Assembly (NCBI GenBank): GCA_028706745.1
Contig: JAQTVM010000001.1
Location: 12,399-76,398 of the forward strand
DNA: 64,000 nt
DNA from: Candidatus Nanoarchaeia archaeon
Lineage (GTDB): Archaea > Nanobdellota > Nanobdellia > SCGC-AAA011-G17 > GW2011-AR17
Reading direction: 5' to 3'
Below, piece by piece: positions 9,894-46,620 of the stretch. The translations under genes were made by a program, and so were the position numbers. How positions within the stretch are numbered: position 1 is the stretch's first letter; each line of letters starts with the position of its first letter. The notes beneath the pieces were generated by a model that was given only the letters and a program-made list of their open reading frames with translations, searched no databases and had not been told where the DNA came from.

Positions 9894-12245
9894 TCAAAAA
9901 TCTCCCAAGTTCTTCTGTTTTACCCCTTTAGCGGCATCTTCAAATGTCTGCCCCATAAAGCATAGAATTGCGTCTGCAATCGGCTTGAGCTGCTTTTTAA
10001 GATAATGCTCATAGTCAATCTTATGCGATACAAAACCCATGGGCTCAGGCCCGTCTTCTGTCATCACGTATTCAATGATATTGCTTTCAACCTTCGGCAG
10101 TTTTCTTGCTGCCTTTATATGCGGCGGAGTTGTCTTTGTATATTCATCAATATTTTTTCTTGCTGTTTTCCTGTAAACAAGCCGGGAATCAAATTCCCCT
10201 TTCTCCAGTTTTTGCACAAAATCAGCTATGAAAGGAAGCAATTGCTTGTCATGAAAAAGCCTGTCAAGCAGTTCGTACTGAAACTTCTTTGCAAGCTCTG
10301 TCCAGTCTCCCCTTACAAACTCTAATCCTGTAATGTCAATCTTCTCCTTTCCTTCTTTTATAACCAGCCCCGCATACCTCTTTTTTGCGCCAACTTCTGT
10401 CTTGCGCAGCTTGGGCATCAAAAACTTCAAAAAGCACTTGTCAAACTGCATGTCAAGGAAAGAATCCCTCTTGAACTGCTTTTTCACATATGATTTATAA
10501 AATTCATTAATCTGAATCGCAAGCTTTCTTCCTATTTCCTCTGCCTCTTCCCTGTTTTTTGCCTTTGTAACAACAAAACAAGAGTCAGTGTCAGAGTAAA
10601 GCACTTCATATCCCCTTTTCCTGATTTCAACTGCAGTGTTCTGTATAATCTCCCTTGCAAAAGAGGTTATAGCATTCGCAATTGCCATGTTAAAGAACCT
10701 TGAATTAGGGGAAGCCATTGCGCCGTAAAAGCTGTTCATCAGTATTTTTATTGCATACCTTGCAAGCTCATCCTTTCTTTTTCTTGCTTCCTCCCTTGAA
10801 GCCCATAATTTATGTATTATTGAGGGCAAAATCCCGTCTTCATTCTTAAAGCACGCGCCATTCGGCGATTTTACCATTCCCTTAGCACACTTTTCAGAAA
10901 AAGAGGAGGGATCAATGTTAAAAGTTGTTATAATCGACGGATACAGCGATTTGAAATCAAGCACAGCTACATTCTCATAAATCCCCGGCTTTGGCTCCAT
11001 TACAAAAGCGCCTTTTACCATGGTTTCCTTTTCAGCATAAGACATAGACGGGCAGACAAGCCCTCTTTTCCTTGCCTCGCGAATGTACAATGAATCAAGA
11101 GAGGCAATCGAGGCAGAAACCCTGTCAATCTGCATTCCTGTCAGCAAACTGCGTTCAATCGCAAGGCTCAATGCATTTGACTTTTCAATTATCTTAATCA
11201 CAAGCCTCGCATCCTGAAGATTGTAATCAGCAAGCAATTGGGGATTTTTCACAAACATCTCGTCAATTTCATTCCCTTTGCTTGTAAATTTCACAAGCTT
11301 TCCCTCGCCTGTAAATGTTCTTGCGGCTGTCTCAAGCCTGTAATCCTCAAGCCTGATAAAAGCCCCCTTCAATAACTGCATTGCGTCAATTATCAGCCTG
11401 CCTTCTGCATCTGCCTTTGACTCTTTCATGAAATCCTTTTCAATCCTTAATTTGCACCTTGCATTTCCCCTTCCGAGAGCCAATTCCATTCCGTATTCCC
11501 TCATCCTGTCTTGCAAAACCTTAAGGTCAAAGTCAATCAGGTTCCATCCTGTTATTATGTCAGGATCAAACTCTCTCACTGCATCAATAAACTTCTCAAG
11601 CACTTCTTCCTCTGATTTGCAGCAGACTGCATTTTTTATTTTTTTCTTTGTGTTGATGAATGTATTTTCAAATGAATCAGCAGCCAATGAAATTGCATAC
11701 ACTTCGCCTGCATCCTGCCTTGTTTCAATGTCAAGAGAAAGCACTTTCAGCTTTGGAAAGAAAGAAGCAGGCTTAAAAGAAGGATTTTTGAAAACAAGAA
11801 GGTTGTCCTGATATTCCTGCTCTCCGTCAATATCAACACATCCTTTTATGTCGTTGTCAATAAGAAAGCGCTGCGCAAAACGTATGTCAGCTTCATAGCA
11901 AACAATGCCGTTTGATTCAAGCATCTGCCTGTATTCAGGAACGTCAGAAGGCTTTTGCGTGAAAATGCGCACAACCTTGTCGCCATTGAATGTCTTAAGC
12001 CCTGTCTTCTCAATCTCAAGCTCCTCAACTTCTCTTGCTCTTTTTAAGTCAGCTTCCTTTATGTAGAAATAAGGCTTGAAAGGAGCCACTGCTGCAAATG
12101 ACTCTCCTTTTTCCAGCCTTCCAAATAAGAATACATAAGGGCTGTCCCCTATAATCCTGTATGTCGAATACAATACAAAACCTTTCATGAGATGAAGTAA
12201 TAAAGGTATGATTAAAAGCCTTGCGGCTATATGATTTTCTGGCAA
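9894..12245 (-). CDS. polB: DNA polymerase, family B
   Basis: 783 aa; 3'-5' exonuclease motifs and polymerase motif C (LYSDTDS), motif A/B region. Confidence 0.9.
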   Translation of the reverse strand: MPENHIAARLLIIPLLLHLMKGFVLYSTYRIIGDSPYVFLFGRLEKGESFAAVAPFKPYFYIKEADLKRAREVEELEIEKTGLKTFNGDKVVRIFTQKPSDVPEYRQMLESNGIVCYEADIRFAQRFLIDNDIKGCVDIDGEQEYQDNLLVFKNPSFKPASFFPKLKVLSLDIETRQDAGEVYAISLAADSFENTFINTKKKIKNAVCCKSEEEVLEKFIDAVREFDPDIITGWNLIDFDLKVLQDRMREYGMELALGRGNARCKLRIEKDFMKESKADAEGRLIIDAMQLLKGAFIRLEDYRLETAARTFTGEGKLVKFTSKGNEIDEMFVKNPQLLADYNLQDARLVIKIIEKSNALSLAIERSLLTGMQIDRVSASIASLDSLYIREARKRGLVCPSMSYAEKETMVKGAFVMEPKPGIYENVAVLDFKSLYPSIITTFNIDPSSFSEKCAKGMVKSPNGACFKNEDGILPSIIHKLWASREEARKRKDELARYAIKILMNSFYGAMASPNSRFFNMAIANAITSFAREIIQNTAVEIRKRGYEVLYSDTDSCFVVTKAKNREEAEEIGRKLAIQINEFYKSYVKKQFKRDSFLDMQFDKCFLKFLMPKLRKTEVGAKKRYAGLVIKEGKEKIDITGLEFVRGDWTELAKKFQYELLDRLFHDKQLLPFIADFVQKLEKGEFDSRLVYRKTARKNIDEYTKTTPPHIKAARKLPKVESNIIEYVMTEDGPEPMGFVSHKIDYEHYLKKQLKPIADAILCFMGQTFEDAAKGVKQKNLGDF

Positions 12246-12299
12246 AATACAGCATTTTTAAAGGGAATATTTATAAACCTAAGTATTATTACTAATGCC

Positions 12300-14321
12300 A
12301 TGGCAGGAAAAGACGCCAAAAGCCTCGAAGAAAGGCTCAGATTGGGCTTTGACTGCGATGCACTATGTTCTACAGAGCAAAAAAAGGAAGAGCTCAGAAT
12401 TAACAAGGTAAACGGGATGGGCGCTTTCCTGAAAGAGGATTATTCATCAGCAAGGCAGTTCTTTATCAATGCAATTCCCAAAACAGGCGACAAGCAGGAG
12501 AAAGAATGGTTTTACAGGAAGATAATAGAGTGCTCAAAAGAGCTTTTTAAGAACCTGATGGACAACCAGCTTGAAGACAAGGCAGAAGAAGAGTTCAAAA
12601 GAGTATGCGCCGGGTATGAGCATCTGATAAAGGCATTTGAAACATCTGATAATTACCTTGACTATATGTCTTTTGTAGGCTTTGAGATGAGCGACAAATA
12701 TGACAAAAATCTTTTTGAAGAGGCAAAAAAAATAGGCGAAAAGGCATTATGCCGTTTCCCTGAAGACCATCGCCTTTACAAGGAAATGTATGACTTATGC
12801 ATTTACACGCAGGATGATGAACTGGAAGATAATTGTATACACACGGCTGCAAAGCTAAAATTCAACGATGCAGATTATATGCTTGATTCTTTCGGCAACG
12901 CATTATGGCAGAGGCATAAGGATAATGGGATTATTCCTTTTCAGACAATAATGGAATGCAGGGGCGGGGCTTTGTATGAAAACCCCGCAGCGCTGCAGAA
13001 ATACGGCAAATACATGGTTGACAATGTTGCAGGCAATGATAAGCTTGCGCTCCATATGCTTTATACAGCATACTGCAAAAAGCCGCTTATGCCCGGATTA
13101 AAGGAAGACCTTGTTGATGCTTTTGAGCAAACCATGGAATATATGAAAAAGAATAATGCGCCAATTGCAGAAAGAAAGCTTTTCATCGCCAGATACCAAA
13201 AAATTCTTGAAATCAGGAAAGAACTTGCAGGGGAAAATGAAAAAGAGAATGAAAAAAGCGCAGACCGGAACAGGTTTTCAAGCGAGATAGTTGTTGTGAA
13301 CCCAAAAGAAATAAAGCAGTACCTTGACCAGTATGTGATAGGGCAGGAGCAGGCAAAAAGAGGAGTTTCAGTGGGATATTACATGCACCTCCTGCGCCTT
13401 AAGCACCAGGGAGAAAAGAATTCAAAAATGGACAAGAGCAACATCCTTCTTCTCGGTCCTACAGGCTGCGGAAAAACATATATGCTGCAGATACTTGCGC
13501 AGATGTCAAAGGTTCCATTTGTAATATTCGACACTTCAAAGATAACATCAGCAGGCTATGTAGGAAGCGATGCAGAAGACTGCCTTAAGTCCCTCGTGAA
13601 TGCGGCAGAAGGGGACATTGAGCTTGCACAGAGAGGCATAGTTTACCTTGATGAGGCTGACAAGATAAAGGCAAAGCCCGGATACGGGAAAGATGTCGGC
13701 GGAGAAGGCGCACAGCAGCAGCTTTTGAAGCTTTTGGAAGGCTCGATTGTAAATGTCGGCGGGCATAATGAGAAAAAGTTTCAGATAGACACAAAAAACA
13801 TACTTTTTGTCGTTGGCGGGGCTTTTTCATACACAGAAGAAGGCGGCAGCATTGGTGACAGGATTCAGTGCAGGGAAAAGGTCGTAGGATTCAGGATGCA
13901 AAAAGACGAGCCGGAAGAAACAAAAACATGCAAAGAAGATAAAAAGAACATTGTTACAAAGCTCACTGACAAGGATTTGCACGAATATGGTTTCCTGCCT
14001 GAATTCATTGGCAGATTGCATTACAGAATTGTGCTTGACTCGCTTACAAAGCCCGAACTGAGAAGAATCCTCACAGAACCCGGAAATGCAATCATACCGC
14101 AATATGAAAACGCGTTCAGGCTGTCAGGAATAAAGCTGGTAATAAGGGATGATGCCCTTGACACAATCGCAGAAGAGGCATTTGCCTTGAATGCAGGCGC
14201 AAGAAGCCTCAAGACAATCTGCGACAAGATATTTGAAGACGCATTGTTCCACCTTCCGGGCAGCAGCACCACGGAGTATATTGTCAATAGAACGGAAGTA
14301 ATGCGCTACATAAAGAAATAG
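12300..14321 (+). CDS. ClpX-like AAA+ unfoldase with novel ~345-aa N-terminal alpha-helical domain
   Basis: C-terminal 330 aa match ClpX nearly motif-by-motif. Shared motifs: YVIGQEQAK, GPTGCGKT, GYVGSDAED, QRGIVYLDEADKI, GGEGAQQQLLKLLEGS, YGFLPEFIGRL and GARSL. A VGF tripeptide sits at the IGF-loop position. The N-terminal Zn-binding domain of ClpX is absent. ATG at 12300 is preceded by TTTATAAAC at 12269. Confidence 0.75.
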   Translation: MAGKDAKSLEERLRLGFDCDALCSTEQKKEELRINKVNGMGAFLKEDYSSARQFFINAIPKTGDKQEKEWFYRKIIECSKELFKNLMDNQLEDKAEEEFKRVCAGYEHLIKAFETSDNYLDYMSFVGFEMSDKYDKNLFEEAKKIGEKALCRFPEDHRLYKEMYDLCIYTQDDELEDNCIHTAAKLKFNDADYMLDSFGNALWQRHKDNGIIPFQTIMECRGGALYENPAALQKYGKYMVDNVAGNDKLALHMLYTAYCKKPLMPGLKEDLVDAFEQTMEYMKKNNAPIAERKLFIARYQKILEIRKELAGENEKENEKSADRNRFSSEIVVVNPKEIKQYLDQYVIGQEQAKRGVSVGYYMHLLRLKHQGEKNSKMDKSNILLLGPTGCGKTYMLQILAQMSKVPFVIFDTSKITSAGYVGSDAEDCLKSLVNAAEGDIELAQRGIVYLDEADKIKAKPGYGKDVGGEGAQQQLLKLLEGSIVNVGGHNEKKFQIDTKNILFVVGGAFSYTEEGGSIGDRIQCREKVVGFRMQKDEPEETKTCKEDKKNIVTKLTDKDLHEYGFLPEFIGRLHYRIVLDSLTKPELRRILTEPGNAIIPQYENAFRLSGIKLVIRDDALDTIAEEAFALNAGARSLKTICDKIFEDALFHLPGSSTTEYIVNRTEVMRYIKK

Positions 14322-14367
14322 TTTTCTTACAGATAGATTTATATTCTCTTTTTTACCTCCCAAACCT

Positions 14368-15234
14368 ATGGAAAACTGGGTAAAGGCAGGAAAAATAGCA
14401 GCAGAAAGCCTGAACTACGGCTGCGAACTGGCAAAGCCCGGAATCAAGCTGTTAGAGTTGGCAGAGAAGATAGAGGCAAAAATCAAAGAATTGGGCGGAA
14501 AGCAGGCATTTCCTGTAAATCTCTCCTTAAATGAGCTTGCAGCGCATTACACGCCTGCGTCTGATGACACAACAATCCTGAAGGCAGAAGACTTGCTTAA
14601 GATAGATGTTGGCGTGCATATTGAAGGGCATATAGGCGATTGCGCAAGAACAGTGGGAGATGACAAAGAATTAATACGAGCTTCAGAAGCCTGCCTTGCA
14701 GCGGCAATTCCACTTTGTGTTCCCGGAAGAAAAATAAGGGAAATCGGGAAGGCAATAGCGGAAGCTGCAAACGAACACGGATTCATTTCAATAAGAAACC
14801 TCTCCGGGCACGGAATTTCTCATTTTGACCTGCACTGCGGATTAAGCATCCCTAATTTTGACAACGGCGATGAAACAGTATTAAAAGAAGGCGCAATAAT
14901 CGCAATAGAGCCTTTTGTCACAAGAGGAAACTCAGCAAGAGTCAGTGAAGGAAAGCCCTCGGGCATATACAAACTTGAAAAAGTAAAGCCGGTAAGGGAT
15001 ATGAATGCCAGAAAGATTCTCAGTTTCATTGCAAATGAATACTCGAGCCTGCCATTCGCGTCAAGATGGCTTGAAAAGGAATTCCCGAAAGCAAAGTTCT
15101 ATATCCAATTATTAATAAAAGAAGGAATCCTGCGCAGTTATCCGCAGTTATACGAATCCTCAAAAGGAAATGTAAGCCAGGCAGAACATACAATACAAGT
15201 AAAGGAAAATCCCGTTATACTCACGCAAGCTTGA
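14368..15234 (+). CDS. map: methionine aminopeptidase, type 2 (archaeal)
   Basis: 288 aa; pita-bread fold metal ligands in a MetAP2-like arrangement. Confidence 0.85.
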   Translation: MENWVKAGKIAAESLNYGCELAKPGIKLLELAEKIEAKIKELGGKQAFPVNLSLNELAAHYTPASDDTTILKAEDLLKIDVGVHIEGHIGDCARTVGDDKELIRASEACLAAAIPLCVPGRKIREIGKAIAEAANEHGFISIRNLSGHGISHFDLHCGLSIPNFDNGDETVLKEGAIIAIEPFVTRGNSARVSEGKPSGIYKLEKVKPVRDMNARKILSFIANEYSSLPFASRWLEKEFPKAKFYIQLLIKEGILRSYPQLYESSKGNVSQAEHTIQVKENPVILTQA

Positions 15235-15276
15235 TAATTCTTAAAAAAGAAATAGGAAAATAAAAAGAAAAGAGGT

Positions 15277-16179
15277 TTACTCGTAGTGTATATTATTCTT
15301 CGTGGTGATTGTCTCTTCAATCTTATCGGCAAATCCTTTTCCTATGCTGTACCCGAAATGCGAGAACATTCTTCCGAAAAATGACGGGTTCTGCACCATC
15401 AGTGTGCCGACATAAGTGTTCTTGAAGTTCCCTCTTTTTTCGCAGGATTTTATTGCTGTCCTCAATGTGCCTGTCCTGTCAACAAGCCCCATTTTTGCTG
15501 CGTCAATACCGTCCCATACATAGCCGTTTGCATATCCTTCAAGCTGGCTCTTTGTCATCCTGTCGCCTGCCTTCTCTTGCCTGCTTTCATAAACAAGATT
15601 GACAAATCTCTCGTGGTGCCTCTTTACAAGGTATTCAAGGTGCTGCCTTTCCTCTGGTCTTAATTCCCTGAACATTGACATGAAGTCCTTTTCTTCCTTT
15701 GATTTTATTACCTCAAGCTTAACTCCAATTTTTTCCATCAGCTCCTTGACAACAAACTTGTTCATTATTACGCCGATGCTTCCGATTAATGCGTCTTCCG
15801 CAACAATTATCTCGTCGCAGCCGCACGCAGTCATGTAAGCGCCTGAAGCGCAAAGACTGTTCACGTAAGCCACCTTCGGCTTTTTCACTTTTCTTACCAA
15901 GTCATAAATTGTCTTGCTTGCTCCTGCCTCTCCTCCGCCTGAGCTTATGTCAAGAATAATTCCCTTTACCCTGTTATTTTCCTCCAAGCCCTTGAGAATC
16001 TTCTCAAGCCCCTGGGGTGTTGTGGGACCGGGCGCATAGTCCTTAGGTCCTGCATTCCCTATCTGCCCGTTGAAAGGCACTCTTATAATCTGGCTGTCTC
16101 CCTTCTTGTACTCGTCTATTTTCCTTTTTATCATGGGGTATCCTATCAGCCCCAGAAACAAAAGACTTATGTAATCCAT
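15277..16179 (-). CDS. sppA: signal peptide peptidase SppA (S49, ClpP/crotonase fold), 36K type
   Basis: ILDISSGGG oxyanion region and SLCASGAYMTACGCDEI catalytic-Ser region typical of SppA. Confidence 0.75.
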   Translation of the reverse strand: MDYISLLFLGLIGYPMIKRKIDEYKKGDSQIIRVPFNGQIGNAGPKDYAPGPTTPQGLEKILKGLEENNRVKGIILDISSGGGEAGASKTIYDLVRKVKKPKVAYVNSLCASGAYMTACGCDEIIVAEDALIGSIGVIMNKFVVKELMEKIGVKLEVIKSKEEKDFMSMFRELRPEERQHLEYLVKRHHERFVNLVYESRQEKAGDRMTKSQLEGYANGYVWDGIDAAKMGLVDRTGTLRTAIKSCEKRGNFKNTYVGTLMVQNPSFFGRMFSHFGYSIGKGFADKIEETITTKNNIHYE

Positions 16180-16750: not shown

Positions 16751-18748
16751 ATGATAAGAAAAAATGAATCACAGAAAGACATACTTTTGTTTAATTATTT
16801 GAAAGATAAACGTTCTTTTCAAGAAAAATGGAATACTAAAAAAACAACAAATAAGTTTATTCAACCAGTTCTTGATACTTCAAGTAAGAAAAAGAATGGG
16901 CAAAGAGGAGAACCTGATTTTGTATATGTAAACGAAAAAAGGAAAATATTAATATTAATAGAAAATAAAGATGATATTAATCAACATAAATCTAAAAATG
17001 AAGATAATCCTATAACTTATTCTGTAGACGGTATAAAACATTATTTAAGTTGTTTTAAGAAGGATTATCTAGAAAATTTTAATATTACAATTAAAAAATA
17101 TTTAAATGATTGGAAAATTGTTGGGATTGCTGTATCTGGAAATATTGAGGATGAATATAACCATTTAATCTCTACTTATACTCTCCAAGAAGATGAAGTA
17201 AAAGATATAGAAACAGAAGAAATACTTAATGAAGAGGATTACCTCTCTTTATTTGAGAATATCAATTTAGAAAAAATAACAAGAGATATATCCTTATCAT
17301 CAAATAAGATTAATAATCTTTTACGTTCTTTAGATTCACAAAAGAGACCCATTCTCCTTAGTGCTTTAATGATATGTTTATTTGAACCCAAAAATATTCA
17401 AAATGATTTCAAAAATAACTATTCTAATTGGACAGCAAACACAATTATAACGAATATTCCACTAATAATAAAAACGATTTTAGGAAATGAGGGGATACCC
17501 TCGGAAAAGATTGAAGTATTAAATAATGAACTGACATTTATTAAAACAGATTTAGAACTTAAAAATACAGATATATTGAAGGATATACTCAATGAGCTCG
17601 AGAATAATGTTATCCCACAATTTAATAAAAGCCATAATTATGATATTATTGGGAAGTTTTATGAAGATTTTTTGAGATATGCAGGAGTAACAAATGTAAA
17701 AAAAGGGATTATTTTAACACCTGCCCACATTACTAAATTATTTACAGAATTAATTGATGTTAAAACAAATGATGTTATTATTGATACTTGTTGTGGGACA
17801 GGGGCATTTCTTATTTCAGCGATGAATAAAATAATTGAGGAAATAACAGATTCAAGTATTAAAAATAAAAAAGATTTAATTGATAAAGTTAAACATAAAC
17901 AGTTAATTGGTATCGAAAAGAATACGACCATGTATACTCTCGCAATCTCTAATATGCTATTTAGGGGGGATGGTAAATCCAATATTTACCATTTAGATTC
18001 TTTTTCAAAAGAAGCAGATAAGATTTTATTAAATCTTAAAAAGAGGGGAATTATTCCAACAATCGGCTTTATCAATCCGCCTTATGGCGGTAGAGATAAT
18101 AAAGAAAATCCTACTAAAAAAGAAATTCAATTTTTAGAAAGATTATTGGATAATGTTAGCCGATACGGTATAATCATTGCACCATTGTCTACTTATTTTA
18201 AAGAAGAGATTATTAGAAGTAGAATATTATCCAAGCACACTTTGAAATATGTGATAAATATGCCAAAAGAATTATTTCAACCAAATGCATCTACACATAC
18301 AGCTATTGCAGTATTTAAAACAAATTTACCCCATAATAATAAAGAAGTTATATTTTATAATCTTCAAGATGACGGATTAGTTTTATCAAAAAATAGGGGC
18401 AGAACAGATGCATTAAATAAGTGGGCAAAAATAAAAAAGGAATTATTAACAAAATTGAATAATCCTAAAAAATATGCTGATGGAATAAATCTCGTTATAA
18501 CAAAAATCAGTAATGGGGATGAATGGATATTACAAGCTCATGCAAAAACAGATTATACTAAGATTAATGAAAGAGCATTTATTAATAGTATAAAGCAATA
18601 TATTATCTTTTCAACGAAGAGAAAACTAGGTCTATTAGACAGAGATATTGATGAAATAACCTTATTGGAGATACTTAATGAAAATAAGATAAATGCCAAT
18701 GCTTTACTAAGAGATGTTAAAATTAAAGAAAAAAATGAAAAGATATAA
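16751..18748 (+). CDS. fused restriction-modification enzyme (N-terminal PD-(D/E)xK nuclease plus gamma-class N6-adenine DNA methyltransferase), BcgI-A-like / Type IIB-IIG
   Basis: N-terminal EPDFVYV...ILILIENK (PD...ExK); MTase motif I VIIDTCCGTGAFL and motif IV FINPPYG (NPPY). Confidence 0.75.
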   Translation: MIRKNESQKDILLFNYLKDKRSFQEKWNTKKTTNKFIQPVLDTSSKKKNGQRGEPDFVYVNEKRKILILIENKDDINQHKSKNEDNPITYSVDGIKHYLSCFKKDYLENFNITIKKYLNDWKIVGIAVSGNIEDEYNHLISTYTLQEDEVKDIETEEILNEEDYLSLFENINLEKITRDISLSSNKINNLLRSLDSQKRPILLSALMICLFEPKNIQNDFKNNYSNWTANTIITNIPLIIKTILGNEGIPSEKIEVLNNELTFIKTDLELKNTDILKDILNELENNVIPQFNKSHNYDIIGKFYEDFLRYAGVTNVKKGIILTPAHITKLFTELIDVKTNDVIIDTCCGTGAFLISAMNKIIEEITDSSIKNKKDLIDKVKHKQLIGIEKNTTMYTLAISNMLFRGDGKSNIYHLDSFSKEADKILLNLKKRGIIPTIGFINPPYGGRDNKENPTKKEIQFLERLLDNVSRYGIIIAPLSTYFKEEIIRSRILSKHTLKYVINMPKELFQPNASTHTAIAVFKTNLPHNNKEVIFYNLQDDGLVLSKNRGRTDALNKWAKIKKELLTKLNNPKKYADGINLVITKISNGDEWILQAHAKTDYTKINERAFINSIKQYIIFSTKRKLGLLDRDIDEITLLEILNENKINANALLRDVKIKEKNEKI

Positions 18749-19745
18749 ACTAAATCTAAAAAATTGGAAATATTTTAATTTTAATGATATATTTTCATTT
18801 GAGAGGGGAAAAAGGCTTGTTGAATTAGACCAAATAGGGGGAGATATACCTTATATTGCATCTTCCAAAAAAAATAATGGTATAACAAATACAATTAATC
18901 CTCCTGAATTTATGAAATTATATCGGAATGTTTTAACTCTAAATAATAGCGGGAGTGTAGGATATTGTTTTTATCAAGAATCAGATATAGTATGTTCAGA
19001 CCATGTAACTGTAATATGGATTAAAGATGAAAATGTTAAACTAAATCCATATACTGCTTTATATCTAAAACCTATAATAGAATCAATGCAATATAAATTT
19101 AATTTTGCTAGAGAAATAAGTGATGCTAGGTTAAATAAAGAAAAGATATTACTTCCAACTGACAAAAATGGTAATCCTGACTGGTATTTTATGGAAAATT
19201 ACATAAAGCATATTTCTAAGAGAATAAAATATGATAAGGTAATAAATTTAAGAATAGCGAAGAAATTAGATACCCAGAAATGGAAATGGTTCGATATAGG
19301 AAGTTTATTTGAAATTAAAAAAGGAGAACGATTAATTGAAGAAGAACGAATTAGGGGTGAAATCCCTTTGATTACTGCCTCATCTGAAAATAATGGCGTT
19401 GTTGATTTAATATCCTACCCACATTTTAATAAAGAAAAAAAATGTTTTGAAAATAAGATAACAATTGATATGTTCTTCAATGTATTCTACCATAATTATA
19501 AATATTTTAGTGATGATAATGTTCATACTTTAATACCACTTTTTGAAAAAGTAAATACTTATATTTCATTATTTTTAGTAGCAGTTCTTAAAGAATTACA
19601 ATTTAAATATGCTTATGGTCGACAATTAAGAATAAAAAGATTAGAATTAGAAAAAATTAAGCTTCCCATAGATAAAAGAGGTAAACCTAATTGGGTATAT
19701 ATGGAGGATTATATTAAATCCTTGCCTTATAGCTCAAATCTTTAG
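18735..19745 (+). CDS. specificity (S) subunit with two target-recognition domains (HsdS/BcgI-B-like)
   Basis: Two internal repeats: WKYFNFNDIFSFERGKRL...PYIASSKKNNG and WKWFDIGSLFEIKKGERL...PLITASSENNG. ATG at 18735 overlaps the stop of the upstream gene by 14 nt. Confidence 0.75.
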   Translation: MKRYKLNLKNWKYFNFNDIFSFERGKRLVELDQIGGDIPYIASSKKNNGITNTINPPEFMKLYRNVLTLNNSGSVGYCFYQESDIVCSDHVTVIWIKDENVKLNPYTALYLKPIIESMQYKFNFAREISDARLNKEKILLPTDKNGNPDWYFMENYIKHISKRIKYDKVINLRIAKKLDTQKWKWFDIGSLFEIKKGERLIEEERIRGEIPLITASSENNGVVDLISYPHFNKEKKCFENKITIDMFFNVFYHNYKYFSDDNVHTLIPLFEKVNTYISLFLVAVLKELQFKYAYGRQLRIKRLELEKIKLPIDKRGKPNWVYMEDYIKSLPYSSNL

Positions 19746-20732: not shown

Positions 20733-23597
20733 ATGGCAGAAAAAACAAGGGAAAAAAGATTGCAGGTAGTCGAGGCGCAGCAGGATGATGCGTTCAAGGG
20801 AATTGTAAGGATAGATTCTGAGATGCTCAAGGACATTGAATTAAGACCGGGAGACATAGTTGAAATAGAGGGCGCAAGAAAAACAGTCGCCATTGCAGAC
20901 AGGGCATACCCTACTGACATAGGCAGGGAAGTCGTAAGAATGGACGGCATAATGAGGAGAAATGCCAAGACAGCAATCGGCGAGAATGTCACAATAAGAA
21001 AGGCGGAAATAAAAGAGGCAAAGGAGATTATTATTGCTCCTGCTGAAAAAGGCATGATGATACAGGGAGAGCCGGACGTATTTTTGAAAGGATTGCTTGG
21101 CAGGCCGCTGCTGAAGGGGGATATTGTTGTCTTGGGCGGAGCAAGAACAAGGAGAAGGACAATGAGCAGCTCTCCTTTCGAGGAGATATTCCGCGGATTC
21201 GGGCTTGACATGGGGCATTTCGGCTTCAGCAACATAAGATTTGTCATTGTTGACACAAATCCAAAAACAGCAATCATAATCACAGAAGACACAAAAGTGC
21301 ATGTAAGACCTCAGCTGGAAGACAAGGATTTGTCAGAAGAAAAGGTTGCAGGCATAACCTATGAAGACATAGGCGGGCTTGATGATGAGCTGAAAAAAGT
21401 AAGGGAAATGGTTGAGCTTCCGTTGAAGCACCCTGAATTGTTTGAACGGCTTGGTGTGCAGCCTCCGAAGGGAGTCTTATTGCACGGTCCTCCGGGAACA
21501 GGAAAAACACTTTTGGCAAAGGCAGTCGCGACAGAGGCAGATGCCAAGTTTTATTCAATCAACGGGCCTGAAATAACTTCCAAGTTTGTGGGAGAGGCTG
21601 AAAAAAACATCAGGACAATATTTGAAGATGCTGAAAAAAATGCGCCTTCAATTATTTTTATTGACGAGATAGACGCAATCGCTTCAAAAAGGGAAGAAAC
21701 ATACGGCGATGTTGAGAAAAGAATTGTTGCGCAGCTTCTCGCCACAATGGACGGGCTTAAATCAAGGGGAAAAGTAATTGTTATGGCTGCGACAAACAGG
21801 CCAAATGCAATTGACCCTGCATTGAGAAGGCCGGGAAGGTTTGACAGGGAAATAGAAATAGGAGTTCCGTCAAAAGAAGGAAGATTAAGCGTTCTGAAGA
21901 TACACACAAGAAACATGCCGCTGAAATACTGGGACGACTCTGTTGCGTGCAATGTCCTGATGAAAAGGCTGAGCTCATTTGAAGAGGATGCCAAGGCAAG
22001 GATTAGCCAGAAAAAAAGTTCTGCAAGCCAGCTTAATGCCGAGCTGAAAGAAAAAAGCAAGGCGCTTGAAGAAAGCGCGGCTGAATTGAGAAAAATGGAG
22101 CAGCAGAAAAAAGACAGCCCTGACTCTTTCCTTACAGACATAATGGCAAGGATAAATTTCAAGCAGGGCAAGATTGCCGACTTGAAAAAGCAGATAGACA
22201 AGATTAAGTCTGAAATTGAAAGCATTCCGAAAGAGATTAAAAAAATCGAAGAAGATTTGATTGTGGACAAAGAGCTGCTGAAAGAGATAGAGAAAGACAA
22301 AAGCATCCTTCTCGAGCTTGAATCAAAGCTAAAGGAGATTATACACACAAAAGAGATTCGCTCTTTTGAAGACGCAAGGGATTTGTTCCTGAACAAGGAC
22401 TTGAAAGAATCACAGACAAAGATTAAGTCTGTCATTGAAAAGTTCATGAAATCAGGCATACTGTCAGGAGAGTTTGTGGGAGAGATATACAAGGAATCGT
22501 CTGTTATCCTGTTGAAAGGGCTTGCCCAAAAAACATACGGGTTTGTGGGAGCTGACCTTGAAGCATTATGCAAGGAAGCTGCAATGAATGTGGTGAGAAG
22601 AGTACTGCCTAATGTAAACTTCAAGGAAGACGTTCCGATAAAGCCGGAGATTTTGGAAAAATTGGTTATTACTCAGGAAGACTTTGATTCTGCAATGAAA
22701 AACGTCAGCCCTTCCGCATTAAGGGAAGTGTTTGTCGACATACCAAATATCAAATGGGGCGACATCGGCGGATTGAATGATTTGAAGCAGGAACTGAAAG
22801 AGGCAATTGAATGGCCCTTGAAATTCCCTGACTCATTCAAGAGAATGGGGGTTCGCCCGCCGAGAGGGGTAATGATGTACGGTCCGCCCGGCTGCGGAAA
22901 GACATTGCTTGCAAAAGCGGCTGCAAACGAGTCAGAGGCAAACTTCATTTTGGTAAAGGGGCCCGAGCTGATTTCAAAGTGGGTTGGAGAAAGCGAAAAG
23001 GGAATCAGGGAAATCTTCAAGAAGGCAAGGCAGAGCAGTCCCACAATAATCTTCTTTGACGAGATTGACTCAATTGCTCCGAGAAGGGGAAATGAGGCAG
23101 GCACGCACGTCACTGAAAGAATGGTTAACCAGCTTTTGACTGAGATGGACGGGCTTGAGACGCTGAATGACGTGATTGTGATTGCAGCGACAAACAGACC
23201 GGACATTATTGACCCCGGTTTGCTTAGGCAGGGAAGGTTTGACAGGATTATACTTGTCCCGCCGCCTGACACAAAAGCAAGGGAGGAGATTTTCAGGATA
23301 CACACAAAGAACATGCCTCTTGCAAAAGACGTGAAGATAGATAAGCTTGTTGAAAAAACAAACAATTATGTCGGCTCTGACATTGAAGGCATCTGCAGGG
23401 AAGCCGCCACAATTGCATTGAGGGAAAGCATTGACGCAAAGGATGTGAAGCTGAAGCATTTCGAAGAGGCGGTAAAGAAAGTGAAGAGCTCAATCCTGAA
23501 TGAAGAAATACAGAAGTACAGGGAAATTGAGAACAGCTACATACGAAATGCAAGAAGCATATCTGCCGGAGAAAAGGACAAGAGCTACTTCGGCTGA
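20733..23597 (+). CDS. cdc48: Cdc48/VCP-like AAA+ ATPase with ~180-aa coiled-coil insertion in the D1 helical subdomain
   Basis: N domain present. D1 Walker [12 protein letters not shown]; D2 Walker [11 protein letters not shown]; both second-region-of-homology motifs present. 954 aa versus ~740 aa typical. A K/E-rich heptad-like segment lies between IHTRNMPL and [11 protein letters not shown] (about nt 21920-22475). Confidence 0.85.
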
Positions 23598-31573: not shown

Positions 31574-32041
31574 ATGAAATGCCCGTATTGCGGCTGCAAG
31601 GAAACAAAAGTCACTGACAGCAGGGAAAGCAACGAAGAGCCTGTCACCAGAAGAAGGAGGGAATGCCCTAAATGCAAAAAACGATTCACGACATACGAGC
31701 GCCTTGAAACATCAAATGTCATTGTCGTAAAAAAAGACGGCAGGAGAGAGCAGTTTGACAGGGAAAAGCTCAGGAGAGGCTTGTTAAGGGCGTGCGAAAA
31801 AAGGCCCATCTCATCAGACAAAATAGATTCAGTAATCAGCGATATGGAATCAGACATAACTTCCTCGGGAAAAACAGAGGTTGCAAGCAGATTGCTGGGT
31901 GAAAAAGTAATGTCTGCGCTGAAAAAGCTGGACAAGGTGGCATACATCAGGTTTGCTTCTGTCTACAGGGAATTCACAGACCTTGAAACATTCCAGGAAG
32001 AGCTAAAGACGCTTCTCAAGAAGCAGAGGGGGAAAAGATGA
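31574..32041 (+). CDS. nrdR: transcriptional repressor NrdR (Zn ribbon plus ATP-cone)
   Basis: CPYCGC...CPKC; near-identity to the bacterial NrdR signature (KVAYIRFASVYREF). Confidence 0.85.
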   Translation: MKCPYCGCKETKVTDSRESNEEPVTRRRRECPKCKKRFTTYERLETSNVIVVKKDGRREQFDREKLRRGLLRACEKRPISSDKIDSVISDMESDITSSGKTEVASRLLGEKVMSALKKLDKVAYIRFASVYREFTDLETFQEELKTLLKKQRGKR

Positions 32042-35000
32042 TAACCCGGATTAAAAAAAGAGACGGAAGCATTGTTTTTTTTAACAAGGCAAAGATAAGC
32101 GATGCAATATTCAAGGCGGCAAAGTCAGTAGGGGGAAAAGACAGAAGAAGGGCTGAACATCTTGCCTTAATGTCTGTTGAGCTTCTTGAGCAAAGGGGCT
32201 TTTGCGAAGAAAAGATGCCCAATGTCGAGGATGTGCAGGATGCTGTTGAAAAAACGCTCATAGAAGAGGGGCATGCGCAGACAGCAAAAGCATACATAAT
32301 CTACAGGGAGCAGCACAAGAGAATAAGGGAATTCCATTCCTATGTAAACTCAAACGAAATAATGGACGGCTACCTTAACCAGCTTGACTGGAGGGTAAAG
32401 GAAAACAGCAATATGAGCTTCTCGCTCCAGGGATTAAACAACCATATATCATCCATAGTAAGCTCAAACTACTGGCTTCACAAGATTTACCCGCCTGAAG
32501 TGAGGGAAGCGCACATTGAAGGAGACATACATCTTCACGATTTGCAGATACTCGGCTCCTATTGCTGCGGCTGGGACATAATGGACTTGATGATAAAAGG
32601 ATTTGGCGGAGTTCCTGAAAAAGTCGAGAGCATGCCTGCAAGGCACTACAGGGCAATGCTCGGGCAGATAACAAACTTTTTCTACACTCTTCAGGGGGAA
32701 ACAGCAGGTGCGCAGGCATTTTCAAATTTTAATACAATGCTGGCGCCTTTTGTGAAGTATGACCATCTTGAATACAAGGAAGTAAAGCAGGGAATGCAGG
32801 AATTCTTATTTAACATGAATGTGCCGACAAGAGTAGGTTTTCAATGCCTTTCAGCAGACACAGAAATACTTACGCCCACAGGATGGAAAGGATATGGAGA
32901 TATTAACAAAGGCGAGATCATAGAAACATTTAATCTAAGAACAGGAATAATCGAGCATCAAAAAGTTGCCTCTTTTTTTAGAAAGGAATATACGGGCAAG
33001 ATGTACCGCCTGCAAAATCGCATCCAGGACCAGCTTATTTCTCCAAATCACAGAGTTGTAAGAAAAAAATTTCAGACAGGAGAGAATGTTTTGGAGCCTA
33101 TCGAGGAAATTTTGAAGCTCAAGTCTCCTTTTATTATTCCAATTGCCGGAAAAAATAGCAAGCCGGAAGCAAAAATAGAAGACAAGCAGATAAAATTGAT
33201 GGCATGGATTATAAGCGAAGGCACTATTGAAAGGCCAACAAAGTACAGATGCTGTTACAGGGTGAGTATATACCAGTCAAAGATTAAAAATAAAACCAAT
33301 TACAAAGAAATAAAATCACTTTTGCACTATTTTAAACTTGAATTTTCAGAATATGAAGTCGCCTCTTTGGGAGAGAGCGTAACAAGAATGAGGCTGAACG
33401 CAGAAAGCTCAAAAAAAATACATAAATGGTTTGGAAGCAGGGAAAATATCCATTTTATTCCTGATTATTTATTGAATTTAAGCGAAAGGCAATCGCGCTT
33501 GTTTTTGGATACATACATTAAAGGCGAAGGCTTTGAAGGCTGCAAAATATCTGTTTCCGACATAGCCTTGCTAGACAGGCTGCAGATTATCATTGTCAAT
33601 TCAGGATTTGGCTCGAGCATATTAAAACGAAAGCCGACAATCGGCAAGAAAGATATTTTTGTATTAAGGATTATAAGACATAAAGATACGTATATTTCAA
33701 AAGTAAGCCAAGTAAATTACAAAGGAATTATATGGTGCCCGCATACCAAAAATGAGACAGTAATTGCCAGAAGAAGAGGAAAAGTGTTTATTACAGGCAA
33801 TACGCCTTTTACAAATTTAACTCTGGATATTGAAGTGCCTGAAAATCTGAGAAACAGCCACGCAATAATCGGCGGAAAGCCCATGCCCGAAGTGTACGGC
33901 GATTTCCAGAAAGAGGCTGACATGGTAAACAGGGCTTTCCTGGAAGTTATGTCAGAGGGGGATGCAAAAGGGAGGATATTCACATTCCCAATACCTACTT
34001 ATAACATAACAAAAAACATTGATTGGGAAAACCCTGCCCATGACACATTATTTGAAGTTACGTCAAAATTCGGGCTGCCTTATTTTGCAAACTTTGTAAA
34101 CTCAGAGATGAGCCCTGACGATGCAAGAAGCATGTGCTGCAGGCTTAGGCTTGACAACAGGGAATTAAGAAAAAGAAGCGGCGGATTATTTGCTTCAGCC
34201 CCATTGACAGGAAGCATAGGCGTTGTAACACTTAACATGCCTAGGATAGCGTTTGCAGCAAAAGATGAAACAAAATTTGCAGAGCGCGTGGTTGAGCTTA
34301 TGAGAATAGCAAAAACAAGCCTTGACATAAAAAGAAAGGCGGTTGAAAGATTCACGGAGCAGGGGCTTTATCCCTATGCAAAAAAATACCTCGGCGGGGT
34401 AAAACAGGCAACAGGGCAATATTGGGGAAATCATTTCAACACAATAGGGCTTATAGGAATGAACGAGGCGTGCCTTAATATTCTTGGAGAGAACATTGCT
34501 TCAAACAAGGGCAGGAATTTTGCGCTCAGGATTCTTGACGTAATGCGCGAAGAGCTAAGGCAATACCAGGAAAGCACAAACGACAATTATAACCTCGAAG
34601 CAACCCCTGGAGAAGGATGCAGCTACAGGTTTGCAAAGATGGACAGGGAAAGGTTTCCGCAAATAAAAACAGCAGGAGAGCAAGTGCCTTATTACACAAA
34701 CAGCACCCACCTCCCGGTAGGATATACAGACGACATATTTGAAGCGCTTGACCTGCAGGATGAACTTCAGTGCAAGTACACAGGCGGAACAGTGCTTCAC
34801 GGGTTTGTCGGAGAAAGAATATCAGACCCGGAAACATGCAAGAAACTCGTTAAAAAAATAGCCAGTAATTATAAGCTGCCTTACTTTACAATAACCCCGA
34901 CATTCAGCGTATGCCCTGAGCACGGTTATATTGCAGGCGAGCATTCACAATGCAAGAAAGAGACAGCAGAAGGGGCATGCGGAAAGCAGTGCGAAGTTTT

Positions 35001-35142
35001 TTCAAGGGTAGTCGGCTATTACAGACCTGTCCAAAGCTGGAATAATGGGAAAAGAGAGGAGTTCAGGCAGAGAAAAGCTTACTGCGAAAAGAAAAGCATT
35101 GAAAGCATGGAAAAAAAACAGGGATTCAGGTTTGCGATGTAA
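32038..35142 (+). CDS. nrdD: anaerobic ribonucleoside-triphosphate reductase NrdD, intein-containing
   Basis: ATP-cone at N-terminus. The GFQ/TPFTN active-site region is interrupted by a 319-aa insertion. C-terminal Zn ribbon and glycyl-radical motif RVVGYY are present. Extein about 715 aa. Confidence 0.85.
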   Translation: MITRIKKRDGSIVFFNKAKISDAIFKAAKSVGGKDRRRAEHLALMSVELLEQRGFCEEKMPNVEDVQDAVEKTLIEEGHAQTAKAYIIYREQHKRIREFHSYVNSNEIMDGYLNQLDWRVKENSNMSFSLQGLNNHISSIVSSNYWLHKIYPPEVREAHIEGDIHLHDLQILGSYCCGWDIMDLMIKGFGGVPEKVESMPARHYRAMLGQITNFFYTLQGETAGAQAFSNFNTMLAPFVKYDHLEYKEVKQGMQEFLFNMNVPTRVGFQCLSADTEILTPTGWKGYGDINKGEIIETFNLRTGIIEHQKVASFFRKEYTGKMYRLQNRIQDQLISPNHRVVRKKFQTGENVLEPIEEILKLKSPFIIPIAGKNSKPEAKIEDKQIKLMAWIISEGTIERPTKYRCCYRVSIYQSKIKNKTNYKEIKSLLHYFKLEFSEYEVASLGESVTRMRLNAESSKKIHKWFGSRENIHFIPDYLLNLSERQSRLFLDTYIKGEGFEGCKISVSDIALLDRLQIIIVNSGFGSSILKRKPTIGKKDIFVLRIIRHKDTYISKVSQVNYKGIIWCPHTKNETVIARRRGKVFITGNTPFTNLTLDIEVPENLRNSHAIIGGKPMPEVYGDFQKEADMVNRAFLEVMSEGDAKGRIFTFPIPTYNITKNIDWENPAHDTLFEVTSKFGLPYFANFVNSEMSPDDARSMCCRLRLDNRELRKRSGGLFASAPLTGSIGVVTLNMPRIAFAAKDETKFAERVVELMRIAKTSLDIKRKAVERFTEQGLYPYAKKYLGGVKQATGQYWGNHFNTIGLIGMNEACLNILGENIASNKGRNFALRILDVMREELRQYQESTNDNYNLEATPGEGCSYRFAKMDRERFPQIKTAGEQVPYYTNSTHLPVGYTDDIFEALDLQDELQCKYTGGTVLHGFVGERISDPETCKKLVKKIASNYKLPYFTITPTFSVCPEHGYIAGEHSQCKKETAEGACGKQCEVFSRVVGYYRPVQSWNNGKREEFRQRKAYCEKKSIESMEKKQGFRFAM
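32845..33801 (+). mobile_element. intein (Cys1 ... terminal Asn, +1 Thr) with degenerate LAGLIDADG-like homing-endonuclease region
   Basis: Starts CLSADTEIL (block A) right after GFQ and ends ...VFITGN followed by TPFTNLT; internal LMAWIISEGT and FLDTYIKGEGF blocks. Confidence 0.7.
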
Positions 35143-35143
35143 G

Positions 35144-35836
35144 ATGGAGATTGCAGGATTAAAAAAAACATCTCTCGTGGATTATCCGGGCACCATATCT
35201 GCTGTTATTTTTCTTTCTGGATGCAATTTCAGGTGCGGATTCTGCCATAATCCGTCCGTTGTTTTTGGAAAGTCAGCAAAGATAGATGAAAAAGAGGTAA
35301 TGGATTTCCTTGAAAGGAGAAAAAGAGTTCTAGAAGGCGTATGCGTAACAGGAGGTGAGCCGACTATTCACGATAACCTTCCTATGCTTTTAAAAAAAAT
35401 AAAATCAATGGGCTTTTTGGCAAAGCTTGACACAAACGGCACAAATCCTGAAATGCTGAAAAAGATTATAGAAGAAAATATTGTGGATTATGTGGCAATG
35501 GACATAAAGGCGCCGCTTGAGACATATTCTTTTGCTGCAAATGCAGATGTTAATATCAAAAAAATAAAAGAGAGCATGCGGATTCTAATGGAATCAAAAA
35601 TAAAATATGAGTTTCGCATGACTTTACTGCCTAAGTTTGTCAGCATTGAAAGCTTTAAAGAAATATGCGAAATGCTCAAAGGGGCAAAACGATTCTATAT
35701 CCAGCAGTTTGAAAAAGGAAGCGAGATGATTGACTGCGCATTTAAGTCGGAAAAAGCATACACTAAAGAAGAGCTGAATGAGTTTCTTAATGTTGCAAAA
35801 GAATATTTTGAAGAATGCGGCATACGGAACGCTTAA
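35144..35836 (+). CDS. nrdG: anaerobic RNR activating enzyme NrdG (radical SAM)
   Basis: CNFRCGFCHN; the ATG at 35144 immediately follows the nrdD stop. Confidence 0.75.
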   Translation: MEIAGLKKTSLVDYPGTISAVIFLSGCNFRCGFCHNPSVVFGKSAKIDEKEVMDFLERRKRVLEGVCVTGGEPTIHDNLPMLLKKIKSMGFLAKLDTNGTNPEMLKKIIEENIVDYVAMDIKAPLETYSFAANADVNIKKIKESMRILMESKIKYEFRMTLLPKFVSIESFKEICEMLKGAKRFYIQQFEKGSEMIDCAFKSEKAYTKEELNEFLNVAKEYFEECGIRNA

Positions 35837-45600: not shown

Positions 45601-46434
45601 TCAGGCGCACCCCTCTTTCCTTAAGCCGTCATAAGGGCTTTTAACCGAAATAAAGGCAGAAGGGCACATGTGCACATAAACCATTGTTGTTTCCGCACTG
45701 CTGTGCCCCATCAGGGGCTGGACAGCTGAAACACTGTATCCATTTTCAATCAAATGAGTTGCAAAAGAATGCCTTAATGAATGCGGATGAACCTTCTTCT
45801 TAATGCCTGCCTTTCTTGCAGCATCCCTTACAGTCTCCTGCACGCTCCTCGGATGAAGCGGAAAGCCATTTCTTCCTGCAAACAGCCAATCCTCTCCTGC
45901 ATCACAAACAGCCTTTTTCAGCCTTTCACGCAGGCACTCTGCTATAATAAAAGGCCTGTCCTTGTTTCCCTTTCCGTGCCTTACCCATCCAATGCATCTC
46001 TCAAATTCAAAATCAATAGTTCTTAGGTTAAGAGCCTCGCTTACCCTTAATCCTGCAGAATACAACAACTCAAGAATAAGCCTGTGCTTTTCATTATCAA
46101 CAGCAGAAAAAAGTCGAAGCACCTCATCTTTTGTAAGGAATACAGGCAGCGTTTTCGGCACCTTTGAATACTTAATCCGCCAAGTGACTCTTTTGTGCAA
46201 AACCTCTTCCATCAGGAACTTCAGCGCATTCACGTGCACGTTCAGCGTATTGCCGCACTTATTCTCCGCAACAAGCACGTCGATATAATCCCTAACATCC
46301 TTTGACGTAACGCGCATGAATTCCTTAGGGCAAAAGCGCATGAACTGCCTGACACACTGTATATAAGTAAGGATTGTCTTTCGGCTTAGCCCTCTTCTAA
46401 GCATCTCTTTTTGCATGTTGTAGATAGCGTCCAT
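45601..46434 (-). CDS. tyrosine recombinase, XerC/XerD/XerA-like, without IntI-specific insertion
   Basis: C-terminal HPHSLRHSFATHLIENGYSVSAVQPLMGHSSAETTMVYVHM (R..HxxR...Y). Only ~55 aa lie between the KGNKDR and LRHSF boxes, versus ~100 aa in IntI. Start taken at MDAIYNM (46434). Transcribed away from the cassette array. Confidence 0.8.
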   Translation of the reverse strand: MDAIYNMQKEMLRRGLSRKTILTYIQCVRQFMRFCPKEFMRVTSKDVRDYIDVLVAENKCGNTLNVHVNALKFLMEEVLHKRVTWRIKYSKVPKTLPVFLTKDEVLRLFSAVDNEKHRLILELLYSAGLRVSEALNLRTIDFEFERCIGWVRHGKGNKDRPFIIAECLRERLKKAVCDAGEDWLFAGRNGFPLHPRSVQETVRDAARKAGIKKKVHPHSLRHSFATHLIENGYSVSAVQPLMGHSSAETTMVYVHMCPSAFISVKSPYDGLRKEGCA

Positions 46435-46469
46435 ATAAAGGAGGCAAGAAGCTCGTCCCTTAAAAAATC

Positions 46470-46620
46470 TTCGCACAAAATTCCGCAGGATTTCCGGCAA
46501 CCCTTGGAAAACCCACCAAGCCAGTCGAAAATTATATGCAAAAATAGGCAAAAGACACAAAAATTTACAACATCGCCGAAAGCACTTTTTGAGAACCCTC
46601 GTCAAAGCTGGCTAACTAAA
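46470..46620. repeat. ~140-bp noncoding element, copy 2, in the attI-like region between recombinase and first cassette
   Basis: see copy 1 at 38092..38228. Confidence 0.7.

Follow-up and report, generated by a model that had tools for sequence, protein, structure and literature searches.

Proteolysis by the AAA+ unfoldase ClpX together with the peptidase ClpP is regarded as bacterial and organellar, while archaea are said to depend on Lon and on the proteasome, the latter with PAN or Cdc48. Variations on the ClpX theme have been described outside the canonical partnership. Yeast MCX1 is a ClpX that works without ClpP and has lost the IGF element, the tripeptide of the ClpP-docking loop (PMC10886707). 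In bacteria, proteins built from tetratricopeptide repeats (TPRs) or similar repeats work with AAA+ proteases, as in Staphylococcus aureus, where the TPR-like adaptor CxaR binds both ClpXP and the substrate Sle1 (PMC12443321), and in Escherichia coli, where the TPR protein LapB acts with FtsH (PMC11046580). In addition, the archaeal Woesearchaeota and Pacearchaeota carry bacterial GroEL and DnaK-DnaJ-GrpE (PMC8204110). The gene considered here lies in a stretch of 64,000 nucleotides (the window) from contig JAQTVM010000001.1 of a Candidatus Nanoarchaeia archaeon, and it encodes a ClpX-family unfoldase that is unexpected in archaea and new in its architecture, with a TPR-like domain at its N-terminus and a conserved docking loop. 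The literature searched contained no description of ClpX in DPANN archaea or of a TPR-ClpX fusion, and the supplementary tables of DPANN and Woesearchaeota genomics papers contained no clpP or clpX entries.

The C-terminal part of the protein is a ClpX-type AAA+ module by score, by motif and by predicted fold. The NCBIfam ClpX model NF003745 aligns with residues 309-667 at 357.2 bits (E 1e-106; cut-off 359), E. coli ClpX aligns in tblastn with 41.6% identity over 339 amino acids (aa; E 3e-75), and phmmer searches of the PDB return ClpX at ~250 bits and HslU at 136-155 bits. Within the 673-aa protein, Pfam recognizes AAA_2, AAA and ClpB_D2-small between residues 379 and 652. The NCBIfam models for PAN, CDC48 and FtsH reach ~20 bits each, the first two of which set the protein apart from native archaeal AAA+ proteins such as PAN and Cdc48. 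HslU was rejected as an identity given that its model TIGR00390 scores 178.6 bits, in three broken stretches and against a cut-off of 362.45, that the intermediate domain (I-domain) of HslU is missing, and that PDB HslU alignments with the fusion end after ~105 residues. A reading as an anti-phage defence ATPase was likewise set aside, as the PADLOC defence models yielded only weak P-loop-local matches (≤22 bits) and no significant full-length match to the fusion.

The family to which the protein belongs was assembled from 12 full-length homologues found in a first search and 11 more from a profile search, giving ~23 clusters. Walker A, Walker B, the arginine finger, sensor-2 and the substrate-gripping pore-1 loop all align with their counterparts in E. 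coli ClpX (Table 1), and the GYVG of the pore-1 loop is invariant in the 12 core members. In the full-length AlphaFold2 model, the mean predicted local distance difference test score (pLDDT) is 86.5 and the predicted template modelling score (pTM) is 0.52. When this model was compared with the PDB by Foldseek, the best 50 matches were ClpX chains throughout, with target template modelling (TM) scores of 0.73-0.85 and with human mitochondrial ClpX among the best. Confidence is low in the interdomain linker, in the GYVG loop, as expected of a flexible loop, and in residues 528-548, which carry the putative docking tripeptide; these three elements are mobile in ClpX structures. From its sequence, the AAA+ module appears complete and catalytically competent. 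The first-pass annotation, made from the letters of the window, had proposed a ClpX-type unfoldase with a VGF tripeptide in place of IGF and without the zinc-binding domain of ClpX, and these parts of its proposal are borne out here and in what follows.

The VGF tripeptide aligns with I268-G269-F270 of E. coli ClpX. Its G530 and F531 are invariant among the 12 core members, and across the wider family, 21 of 23 members retain the pattern [I/V/L]-G-F, the two exceptions being EGF and ISF. The residues on either side of the tripeptide vary freely, and the tripeptide lies inside the loop of residues 528-548, which is predicted to be flexible or disordered. Over the same set, the AAA+ modules have diverged considerably, with 34-46% identity between the window protein (P0001 in our set) and the 11 added members. 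Because the [IVL]GF pattern has been kept though the AAA+ modules diverged to this extent, a docking partner can be argued for, and because a hydrophobic tripeptide is kept across such deep divergence, the ring most likely docks on a ClpP-type or ClpP-fold peptidase. Whether a peptidase partner of the ring exists at all is, in our estimation, close to evenly balanced with a slight tilt towards its existence.

The N-terminal part of the protein is predicted to be a divergent TPR-like solenoid rather than a new fold. An AlphaFold2 model of residues 1-330, built from a 12-member alignment, has a pLDDT of 88.4 and is all-helical, with ~15 helices. The significant Foldseek matches of this domain in the PDB are all TPR proteins, among them consensus TPR arrays, OGT, SPINDLY, BBSome subunits, PEX5, IFIT5 and LapB (4zlh), at probability 1.0 but with a TM score of only ~0.3, and because of this low score the superhelical geometry is taken to differ from that of known TPR proteins. 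Profile comparisons point in the same direction, with an E value of 0.007 between the family profile and the TPR domain of PEX5 and with Pfam TPR_19 (best E 5e-6) or TPR_14 detected in 4 of the 12 members. The window protein itself is not among these four, and its residues 1-330 have no Pfam match. The positions conserved in the domain are mostly hydrophobic or Ala/Pro, as TPR packing would predict. The domain had been described in the first-pass annotation as a novel, alpha-helical unit of 345 aa; its helical character is retained, its size comes instead to ~300 folded aa followed by a charged linker of ~35 aa, and its novelty gives way to the TPR-like assignment.

The ClpX zinc finger PF06689 (zf-C4_ClpX) has no match in the window protein. 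In precomputed Pfam lists, it is absent in P0001-P0012 and present in most of the bacterial matches. A zinc-binding role for the cysteines of the N-terminal domain was also rejected, since these are not conserved: C78 is the only one conserved at 90% or more, and there is no CxxC motif. Between the solenoid and the AAA+ module, the charged region varies in columns 320-385 of the family alignment (A1), and pLDDT falls below 50 at residues 317-323. Given the pTM of 0.52, the N-terminal domain and the AAA+ module are probably loosely coupled. The TPR-like domain is proposed to act as a substrate or adaptor receptor that replaces the zinc-binding domain of ClpX.

On balance, the protein is probably a ClpX-family unfoldase with a built-in TPR receptor and probably docks on a ClpP-like peptidase whose gene lies at another locus of the genome. 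The analysis shows the domain make-up, the motifs, their conservation and the gene context, and predicts the folds; the steps of the mechanism are a proposal drawn from these. The fusion protein would assemble as a hexameric ring, with six TPR solenoids held on flexible charged linkers above the pore as fused receptors for substrates or adaptors, taking over the job of the bacterial zinc-binding domain and of adaptors acting in trans. Bound proteins would then be threaded through the pore by the GYVG loops, driven by ATP hydrolysis. The VGF loops would fit into hydrophobic clefts on the partner peptidase, which would be of ClpP type or ClpP fold with its gene at another locus, and the pair would be an ATP-dependent protease. 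Where a genome has tandem paralogues, mixed rings may form.

Several observations weigh against this proposal. By whole-protein hidden Markov model scores, the fusion misses both ClpX equivalog cut-offs, marginally for NF003745 (357.2 against 359) and clearly for TIGR00382 (310.4 against 370.75). The loop corresponding to the RKH loop is 3-6 aa shorter than that of E. coli, and the RKH motif is present in no family member; RKH is not universal among bacterial ClpX, which makes it a soft criterion. The pore-2 loop, which in bacteria also contacts ClpP, is 2-3 aa shorter than in E. coli ClpX. In the N-terminal domain, the conserved residues are mostly structural hydrophobics, and none points to a TPR ligand. 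A clpP gene is likewise missing from view: tblastn with E. coli ClpP found none in the window (best E 3.1) or in 10 further family contexts, ~210 kilobases (kb) including the window, and Pfam tables show no CLP_protease in those contexts or at locus L035, which was covered by the Pfam table only. This negative result spans ~230 kb around 12 family loci, in genomes of ~1 Mb each. Finally, ClpP has been reported as absent in archaea and in mollicutes (PMC6600665).

As a control, the same tblastn search was applied to 11 loci outside the family; in seven of them (L024-L030) it picks up a clpP gene of 52-66% identity directly upstream of the bacterial-type clpX. Extension of the contig with the proteins at the window edges retrieved only short Logan contigs, and no ClpP. 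At the loci examined, the fusion is never in a clpP-clpX operon. These results favour the main rival explanation, in which the protein is a stand-alone unfoldase or remodelling chaperone without a peptidase, like mitochondrial Mcx1/ClpX acting on ALAS, and the tripeptide is kept for another reason or binds a non-proteolytic partner. In addition to the missing ClpP gene around the family loci, set against the clpP genes that the control picks up, and to the reported absence of ClpP in archaea, this explanation draws on yeast ClpX, which functions without ClpP (PMC10886707; see also PMC7077987), and on the import of other bacterial chaperones, GroEL and DnaK-DnaJ-GrpE, by Woesearchaeota and Pacearchaeota (PMC8204110). 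However, MCX1, the one documented ClpX without ClpP, has lost its IGF element, and the retention of [IVL]GF in 21 of 23 members, on a flexible loop that is otherwise variable, is hard to explain without a docking partner. A stand-alone function is considered unlikely, if still to be taken seriously.

Another way to account for a docking tripeptide that is conserved while no ClpP gene is seen nearby is that the IGF-type loops dock on a different compartmental peptidase of archaea, for instance a ClpP-fold protease of SDH or NfeD type or the 20S proteasome. A candidate of this kind is found in one relative, where an SDH-type ClpP-fold serine protease (PF01972) of 337 aa with a Lys-rich N-terminus is encoded 5 kb from the fusion (L002:3991-5004), but this gene lies beside a DDE transposase and is absent from the other loci. 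For the proteasome, the known activators use C-terminal HbYX tails, whereas the C-termini of the family are unconserved and have no HbYX. No positive evidence favours any specific partner, and docking on one of these peptidases appears distinctly improbable. The broader case, in which canonical ClpP is truly lacking and the loops dock on an SppA-, SDH- or NfeD-type ClpP-fold enzyme or on the 20S proteasome, is judged rather improbable. If true, such docking would amount to an AAA+ protease pairing as yet undescribed in bacteria, archaea or eukaryotes, in which the TPR domain serves as a built-in degron receptor.

The sequence family of the N-terminal domain is narrowly distributed. When 1.84 billion representative proteins were searched exhaustively with the profile of the domain, 34 matched at E ≤1e-3. 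Of these, 17 are fusions of 640-722 aa in which the N-terminal domain is joined to a ClpX module, and six of the 17 had been part of the query alignment; the remainder, which were not individually checked, look for the most part like generic repeat matches. The domain thus appears to occur only fused to ClpX modules and only in Nanoarchaeota. All named family members come from metagenome-assembled genomes of Nanoarchaeota, Nanoarchaeia or Woesearchaeota. Scanning contigs with five N-domain sequences placed the family in only three GTDB species-representative genomes, at loci already known, and a scan of metagenome contigs added one new locus (L022) to two known ones (L021 and L023), together with 11 further matches to the AAA+ module only (L024-L034). 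Tandem paralogue pairs are present in two relatives, at L002:10001-14092 (P0005 and P0121) and L017:753-5035 (P0130 and P0137). The second copies have an altered pore-1 motif (GIWG) or docking motif (ISF), and such copies would fit mixed or heteromeric rings.

The closest relatives of the AAA+ module outside the family are bacterial ClpX. In neighbor-joining trees that used the best bacterial matches together with E. coli ClpX, and a single E. coli HslU on a long branch as outgroup, the sampled bacterial ClpX sequences group together at 100% bootstrap and are on average ~68% identical in pairwise comparison. The archaeal fusions fall outside this clade, with ~45% identity to it; that all 23 of them form one group, as judged against the HslU branch, has only 32% bootstrap. 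Score, motifs and fold thus mark the family as ClpX-like, yet it constitutes a separate lineage that is either fast-evolving or old, and it does not appear to have been copied recently from any of the bacterial clpX genes sampled. Horizontal acquisition had been raised in the first-pass annotation; an origin from bacteria is plausible, in lineages known to carry other bacterial chaperones (PMC8204110), but a recent transfer does not agree with the position and identity values given above or with the putative archaeal promoters described below.

The gene itself is well delimited. In the list of open reading frames (ORFs), the frame on the forward strand is open over 12231-14321, and the ATG at 12300 is taken as the start, where the N-terminus of every homologue aligns as MA[GDS]K. 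The upstream start at 12231 was rejected, as the conserved 'IFIN' of that extension is a TATA box read as protein. Comparison of the 60 nucleotides upstream of each start showed a TTTATAAA or TTTATATA box in 10 of the 12 family loci; it lies at -23 to -30 relative to the ATG and follows a purine-rich stretch. This spacing is that of a TATA box in an archaeal gene whose transcript is leaderless, or nearly so, and the box is taken as a putative promoter element. The protein is deposited at NCBI as 'AAA family ATPase [Candidatus Nanoarchaeia archaeon]', in a record identical to P0001 and on a contig of 106,874 bp, and the database labels of family proteins read 'AAA family ATPase' or, at JGI, ClpX.

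The host is archaeal. The window encodes a B-family DNA polymerase, FEN1, CDC48, MCM and TBP, as well as pyruvate:ferredoxin oxidoreductase and aminoacyl-tRNA synthetases. Among the loci compared, three synteny groups can be told apart (Table 1), and the gene order of group A, to which the window belongs, recurs in five independent assemblies. The housekeeping genes around the fusion (PolB, FEN1, CDC48 and POR) are conserved in synteny, and together with the archaeal-type TATA boxes they suggest that the gene has been domesticated in archaea. An artefact, in which a bacterial clpX sits on a mis-binned or chimeric contig, could account for bacterial ClpX being the nearest relatives of the AAA+ module outside the family. 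It is refuted by the archaeal genes on both flanks, by the recurrence of the same synteny in independent assemblies, by the conserved archaeal TATA box and by a guanine plus cytosine (GC) content that is uniform at ~41-42% over the gene and its flanks, and its likelihood is negligible.

Table 1. Coordinates of the fusion gene, its domains and motifs, adjoining genes, and the loci of the synteny groups (window positions unless a locus is named)
Feature	Position	Strand	Remarks
TPR-ClpX fusion gene	12300..14321	+	673 aa; stop included at 14321
Archaeal TATA-box-like element TTTATAAA	12270..12277	+	23-30 nucleotides upstream of ATG; putative promoter element
TPR-like alpha-solenoid, aa 1-~298	12300..13193	+	~15 helices, ~7 helix pairs; predicted from AlphaFold2, Foldseek and profiles
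Charged Lys/Glu-rich helix and linker, aa ~299-334	13194..13301	+	Length and sequence vary across the family
ClpX-type AAA+ module, large and small subdomains, aa 335-673	13302..14321	+	NF003745, PDB ClpX, Foldseek
Walker A GPTGCGKT, aa 386-393	13455..13478	+	Aligned with E. coli ClpX
Pore-1 loop GYVG, aa 419-422	13554..13565	+	Substrate-gripping; aligned with E. coli GYVG
Walker B LDEADK, aa 450-455 (DEAD 451-454)	13647..13664	+	Aligned with E. coli ClpX
Shortened RKH-loop counterpart GGHNEKK, aa 487-493	13758..13778	+	RKH motif absent
VGF tripeptide, aa 529-531	13884..13892	+	At the position of the ClpX IGF ClpP-docking loop
EFIGRL with arginine finger, aa 568-573	14001..14018	+	Aligned with E. 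coli ClpX
Sensor-2 GARSLK, aa 633-638	14196..14213	+	Aligned with E. coli ClpX
TTTATATT box of the methionine aminopeptidase gene	14338-14345	+	After a T-rich tract
Type II methionine aminopeptidase (MetAP)	14368-15234	+	TIGR00501, 283.9 bits against cut-off 222.65
SppA (S49) peptidase	15277-16179	-	TIGR00706, 165.3 bits against cut-off 155.45; convergent with MetAP
Synteny group A	Window, L002, L003-5, L006, L035		PolB (divergent), fusion, MetAP, then CDC48; collinear over >20 kb
Synteny group B	L007-L010, L022		DAGK-like kinase, PUA methyltransferase, fusion, TPR protein(s)
Synteny group C	L015-L017		RNase HII (divergent), fusion

The two genes that follow the fusion in the window are MetAP and, convergently, SppA, as first reported from the letters alone, and both exceed their NCBIfam cut-offs. 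MetAP adjoins the fusion in the window and at L002, L003, L006 and L035, but not in groups B or C. Since the adjacency is confined to one collinear clade and MetAP has a TATA box of its own, it is best read as inherited gene order (synteny inertia) and not as evidence of an operon.

The first-pass annotation had also raised a pairing of the unfoldase with SppA, in which this S49 peptidase of the ClpP/crotonase fold would make a new ATP-dependent protease with the ring. The two genes are ~1 kb apart in the window, the fold superfamily is shared with ClpP, a weak Pfam CLP_protease match (E 1e-4) is present in SppA, and the VGF loop needs some partner. On the other hand, no SppA was found within ~10 kb of the fusion in any of 11 other family contexts drawn from three synteny groups, and the genes in the window are convergent, not co-transcribed. 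Characterized SppA enzymes are membrane-anchored and form octameric or pseudo-octameric domes, a mismatch with the cytosolic hexamer that sits on heptameric ClpP; in the window SppA, hydrophobic N-terminal residues 3-17, typical of membrane-anchored SppA, are predicted from the sequence and would provide such an anchor. In relatives within group A, MetAP is directly followed by CDC48, and it is at this point that the window has SppA, beside a low-GC island of foreign character at a rearranged junction. From the absence of SppA near the other loci and its placement at this junction, the pairing is not supported and is highly improbable. SppA and MetAP are not part of the unfoldase machine.

The island covers 16751-19745, where GC content drops from ~41% to 28-32%, and looks like a horizontally acquired restriction-modification module. 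Its products are a Type IIG-like restriction enzyme-methyltransferase of 665 aa (PADLOC E 4e-56) and a specificity subunit of 343 aa. In the relatives L002, L003 and L006, CDC48 converges on MetAP; in the window, CDC48 (954 aa, 20733-23597, forward strand), which lies beyond the island, is on the opposite strand, and this points to a local inversion or rearrangement in the window genome.

Two further features of gene order concern the family as a whole. In group B, the fusions are always followed by one or two separate TPR proteins (L007:6722-7276, L008:6667-7740, L010:5046-7069 and L022:3805-4905); profile-profile comparison of these proteins with the N-terminal domain of the fusion gave no relationship (probability <2%). 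In two independent synteny groups, the fusion is divergent from a DNA-replication gene, namely PolB in group A and RNase HII in group C (L015-L017). This arrangement could reflect co-regulation with replication or coincidence.

Elsewhere in the window, the divergent B-family polymerase gene (9894-12245, reverse strand) matches the NCBIfam model 'DNA polymerase II' NF004421 at 755 bits against a cut-off of 570, and as the model alignment begins at residue 19-22, its start is probably an internal ATG near 12188. A 300-aa protein encoded at 649-1551 on the reverse strand may be a DPANN homologue of pentameric ligand-gated ion channels, as Pfam matches it below threshold to their ligand-binding half and also to their transmembrane half (E 2e-4 and 2e-5). 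At 31574-35836, the gene for a bacterial-type NrdR repressor (zinc ribbon and ATP-cone) precedes those for an anaerobic ribonucleotide reductase NrdD of 1034 aa and for a radical SAM activase resembling NrdG. The Pfam match of NrdD is split in two stretches, which an insertion or an intein could explain. A tyrosine recombinase of the Phage_integrase family (E 1.5e-41) is encoded at 45601-46605 on the reverse strand and may be Xer-like or belong to a mobile element; several small ORFs without Pfam matches and two nucleotidyltransferase (Polbeta) genes come after it.

A ClpX-type motor that has become fixed in a DPANN lineage behind putative archaeal promoters, with its ClpP-docking tripeptide apparently still under selection, allows three possible conclusions: some archaea have ClpXP-like proteolysis, the loop now serves a new partner, or its function does not depend on ClpP. 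ClpX also joins GroEL and DnaK-DnaJ-GrpE among the bacterial proteostasis parts present in Woesearchaeota and Pacearchaeota, an identity hidden in public annotation by the label 'AAA family ATPase'. Additionally, the fusion is a natural experiment on the specificity of AAA+ unfoldases, as a hard-wired TPR receptor replaces the zinc-binding domain and detachable adaptors.

Compared with bacterial ClpX, the AAA+ module of the fusion is ~42-47% identical and shares the Walker A and B motifs, GYVG, the arginine finger, sensor-2, the position of the IGF-type tripeptide and the predicted fold. Unlike bacterial ClpX, the fusion has a TPR-like domain of ~300 aa in place of the C4 zinc-binding domain, its RKH and pore-2 loops are shortened, it lies outside the sampled bacterial clade, and it is found in an archaeal host behind an archaeal-type promoter rather than in a clpP-clpX operon. 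Mitochondrial ClpX and yeast Mcx1 likewise join a ClpX AAA+ module to a non-canonical N-terminus and provide the precedent for a peptidase-independent unfoldase (PMC10886707). However, the tripeptide lost from MCX1 is kept in the TPR-ClpX family, and the N-terminal regions are unrelated. HslU is a sister AAA+ family in the same clade, and the first ~100 residues of its module align well with the fusion, but HslU possesses the I-domain that the fusion lacks and docks by C-terminal tails instead of an IGF loop.

With respect to the N-terminal domain, the closest functional parallels are CxaR and LapB, in which, as proposed for the receptor of the fusion, a TPR or TPR-like groove delivers a particular substrate to an AAA+ protease. 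In sequence, neither of the two could be related to the N-terminal domain of the fusion. Whereas CxaR and LapB are separate small proteins that act in trans, the TPR solenoid of the fusion is covalently joined to the motor. PAN and Cdc48/VAT, finally, perform the same general job in the same cell type, and CDC48 is encoded in the window 6 kb from the fusion. These are classical AAA proteins that dock on the 20S proteasome by a C-terminal HbYX motif, whereas the fusion has no conserved C-terminal motif and carries a ClpX-type tripeptide on an internal loop.

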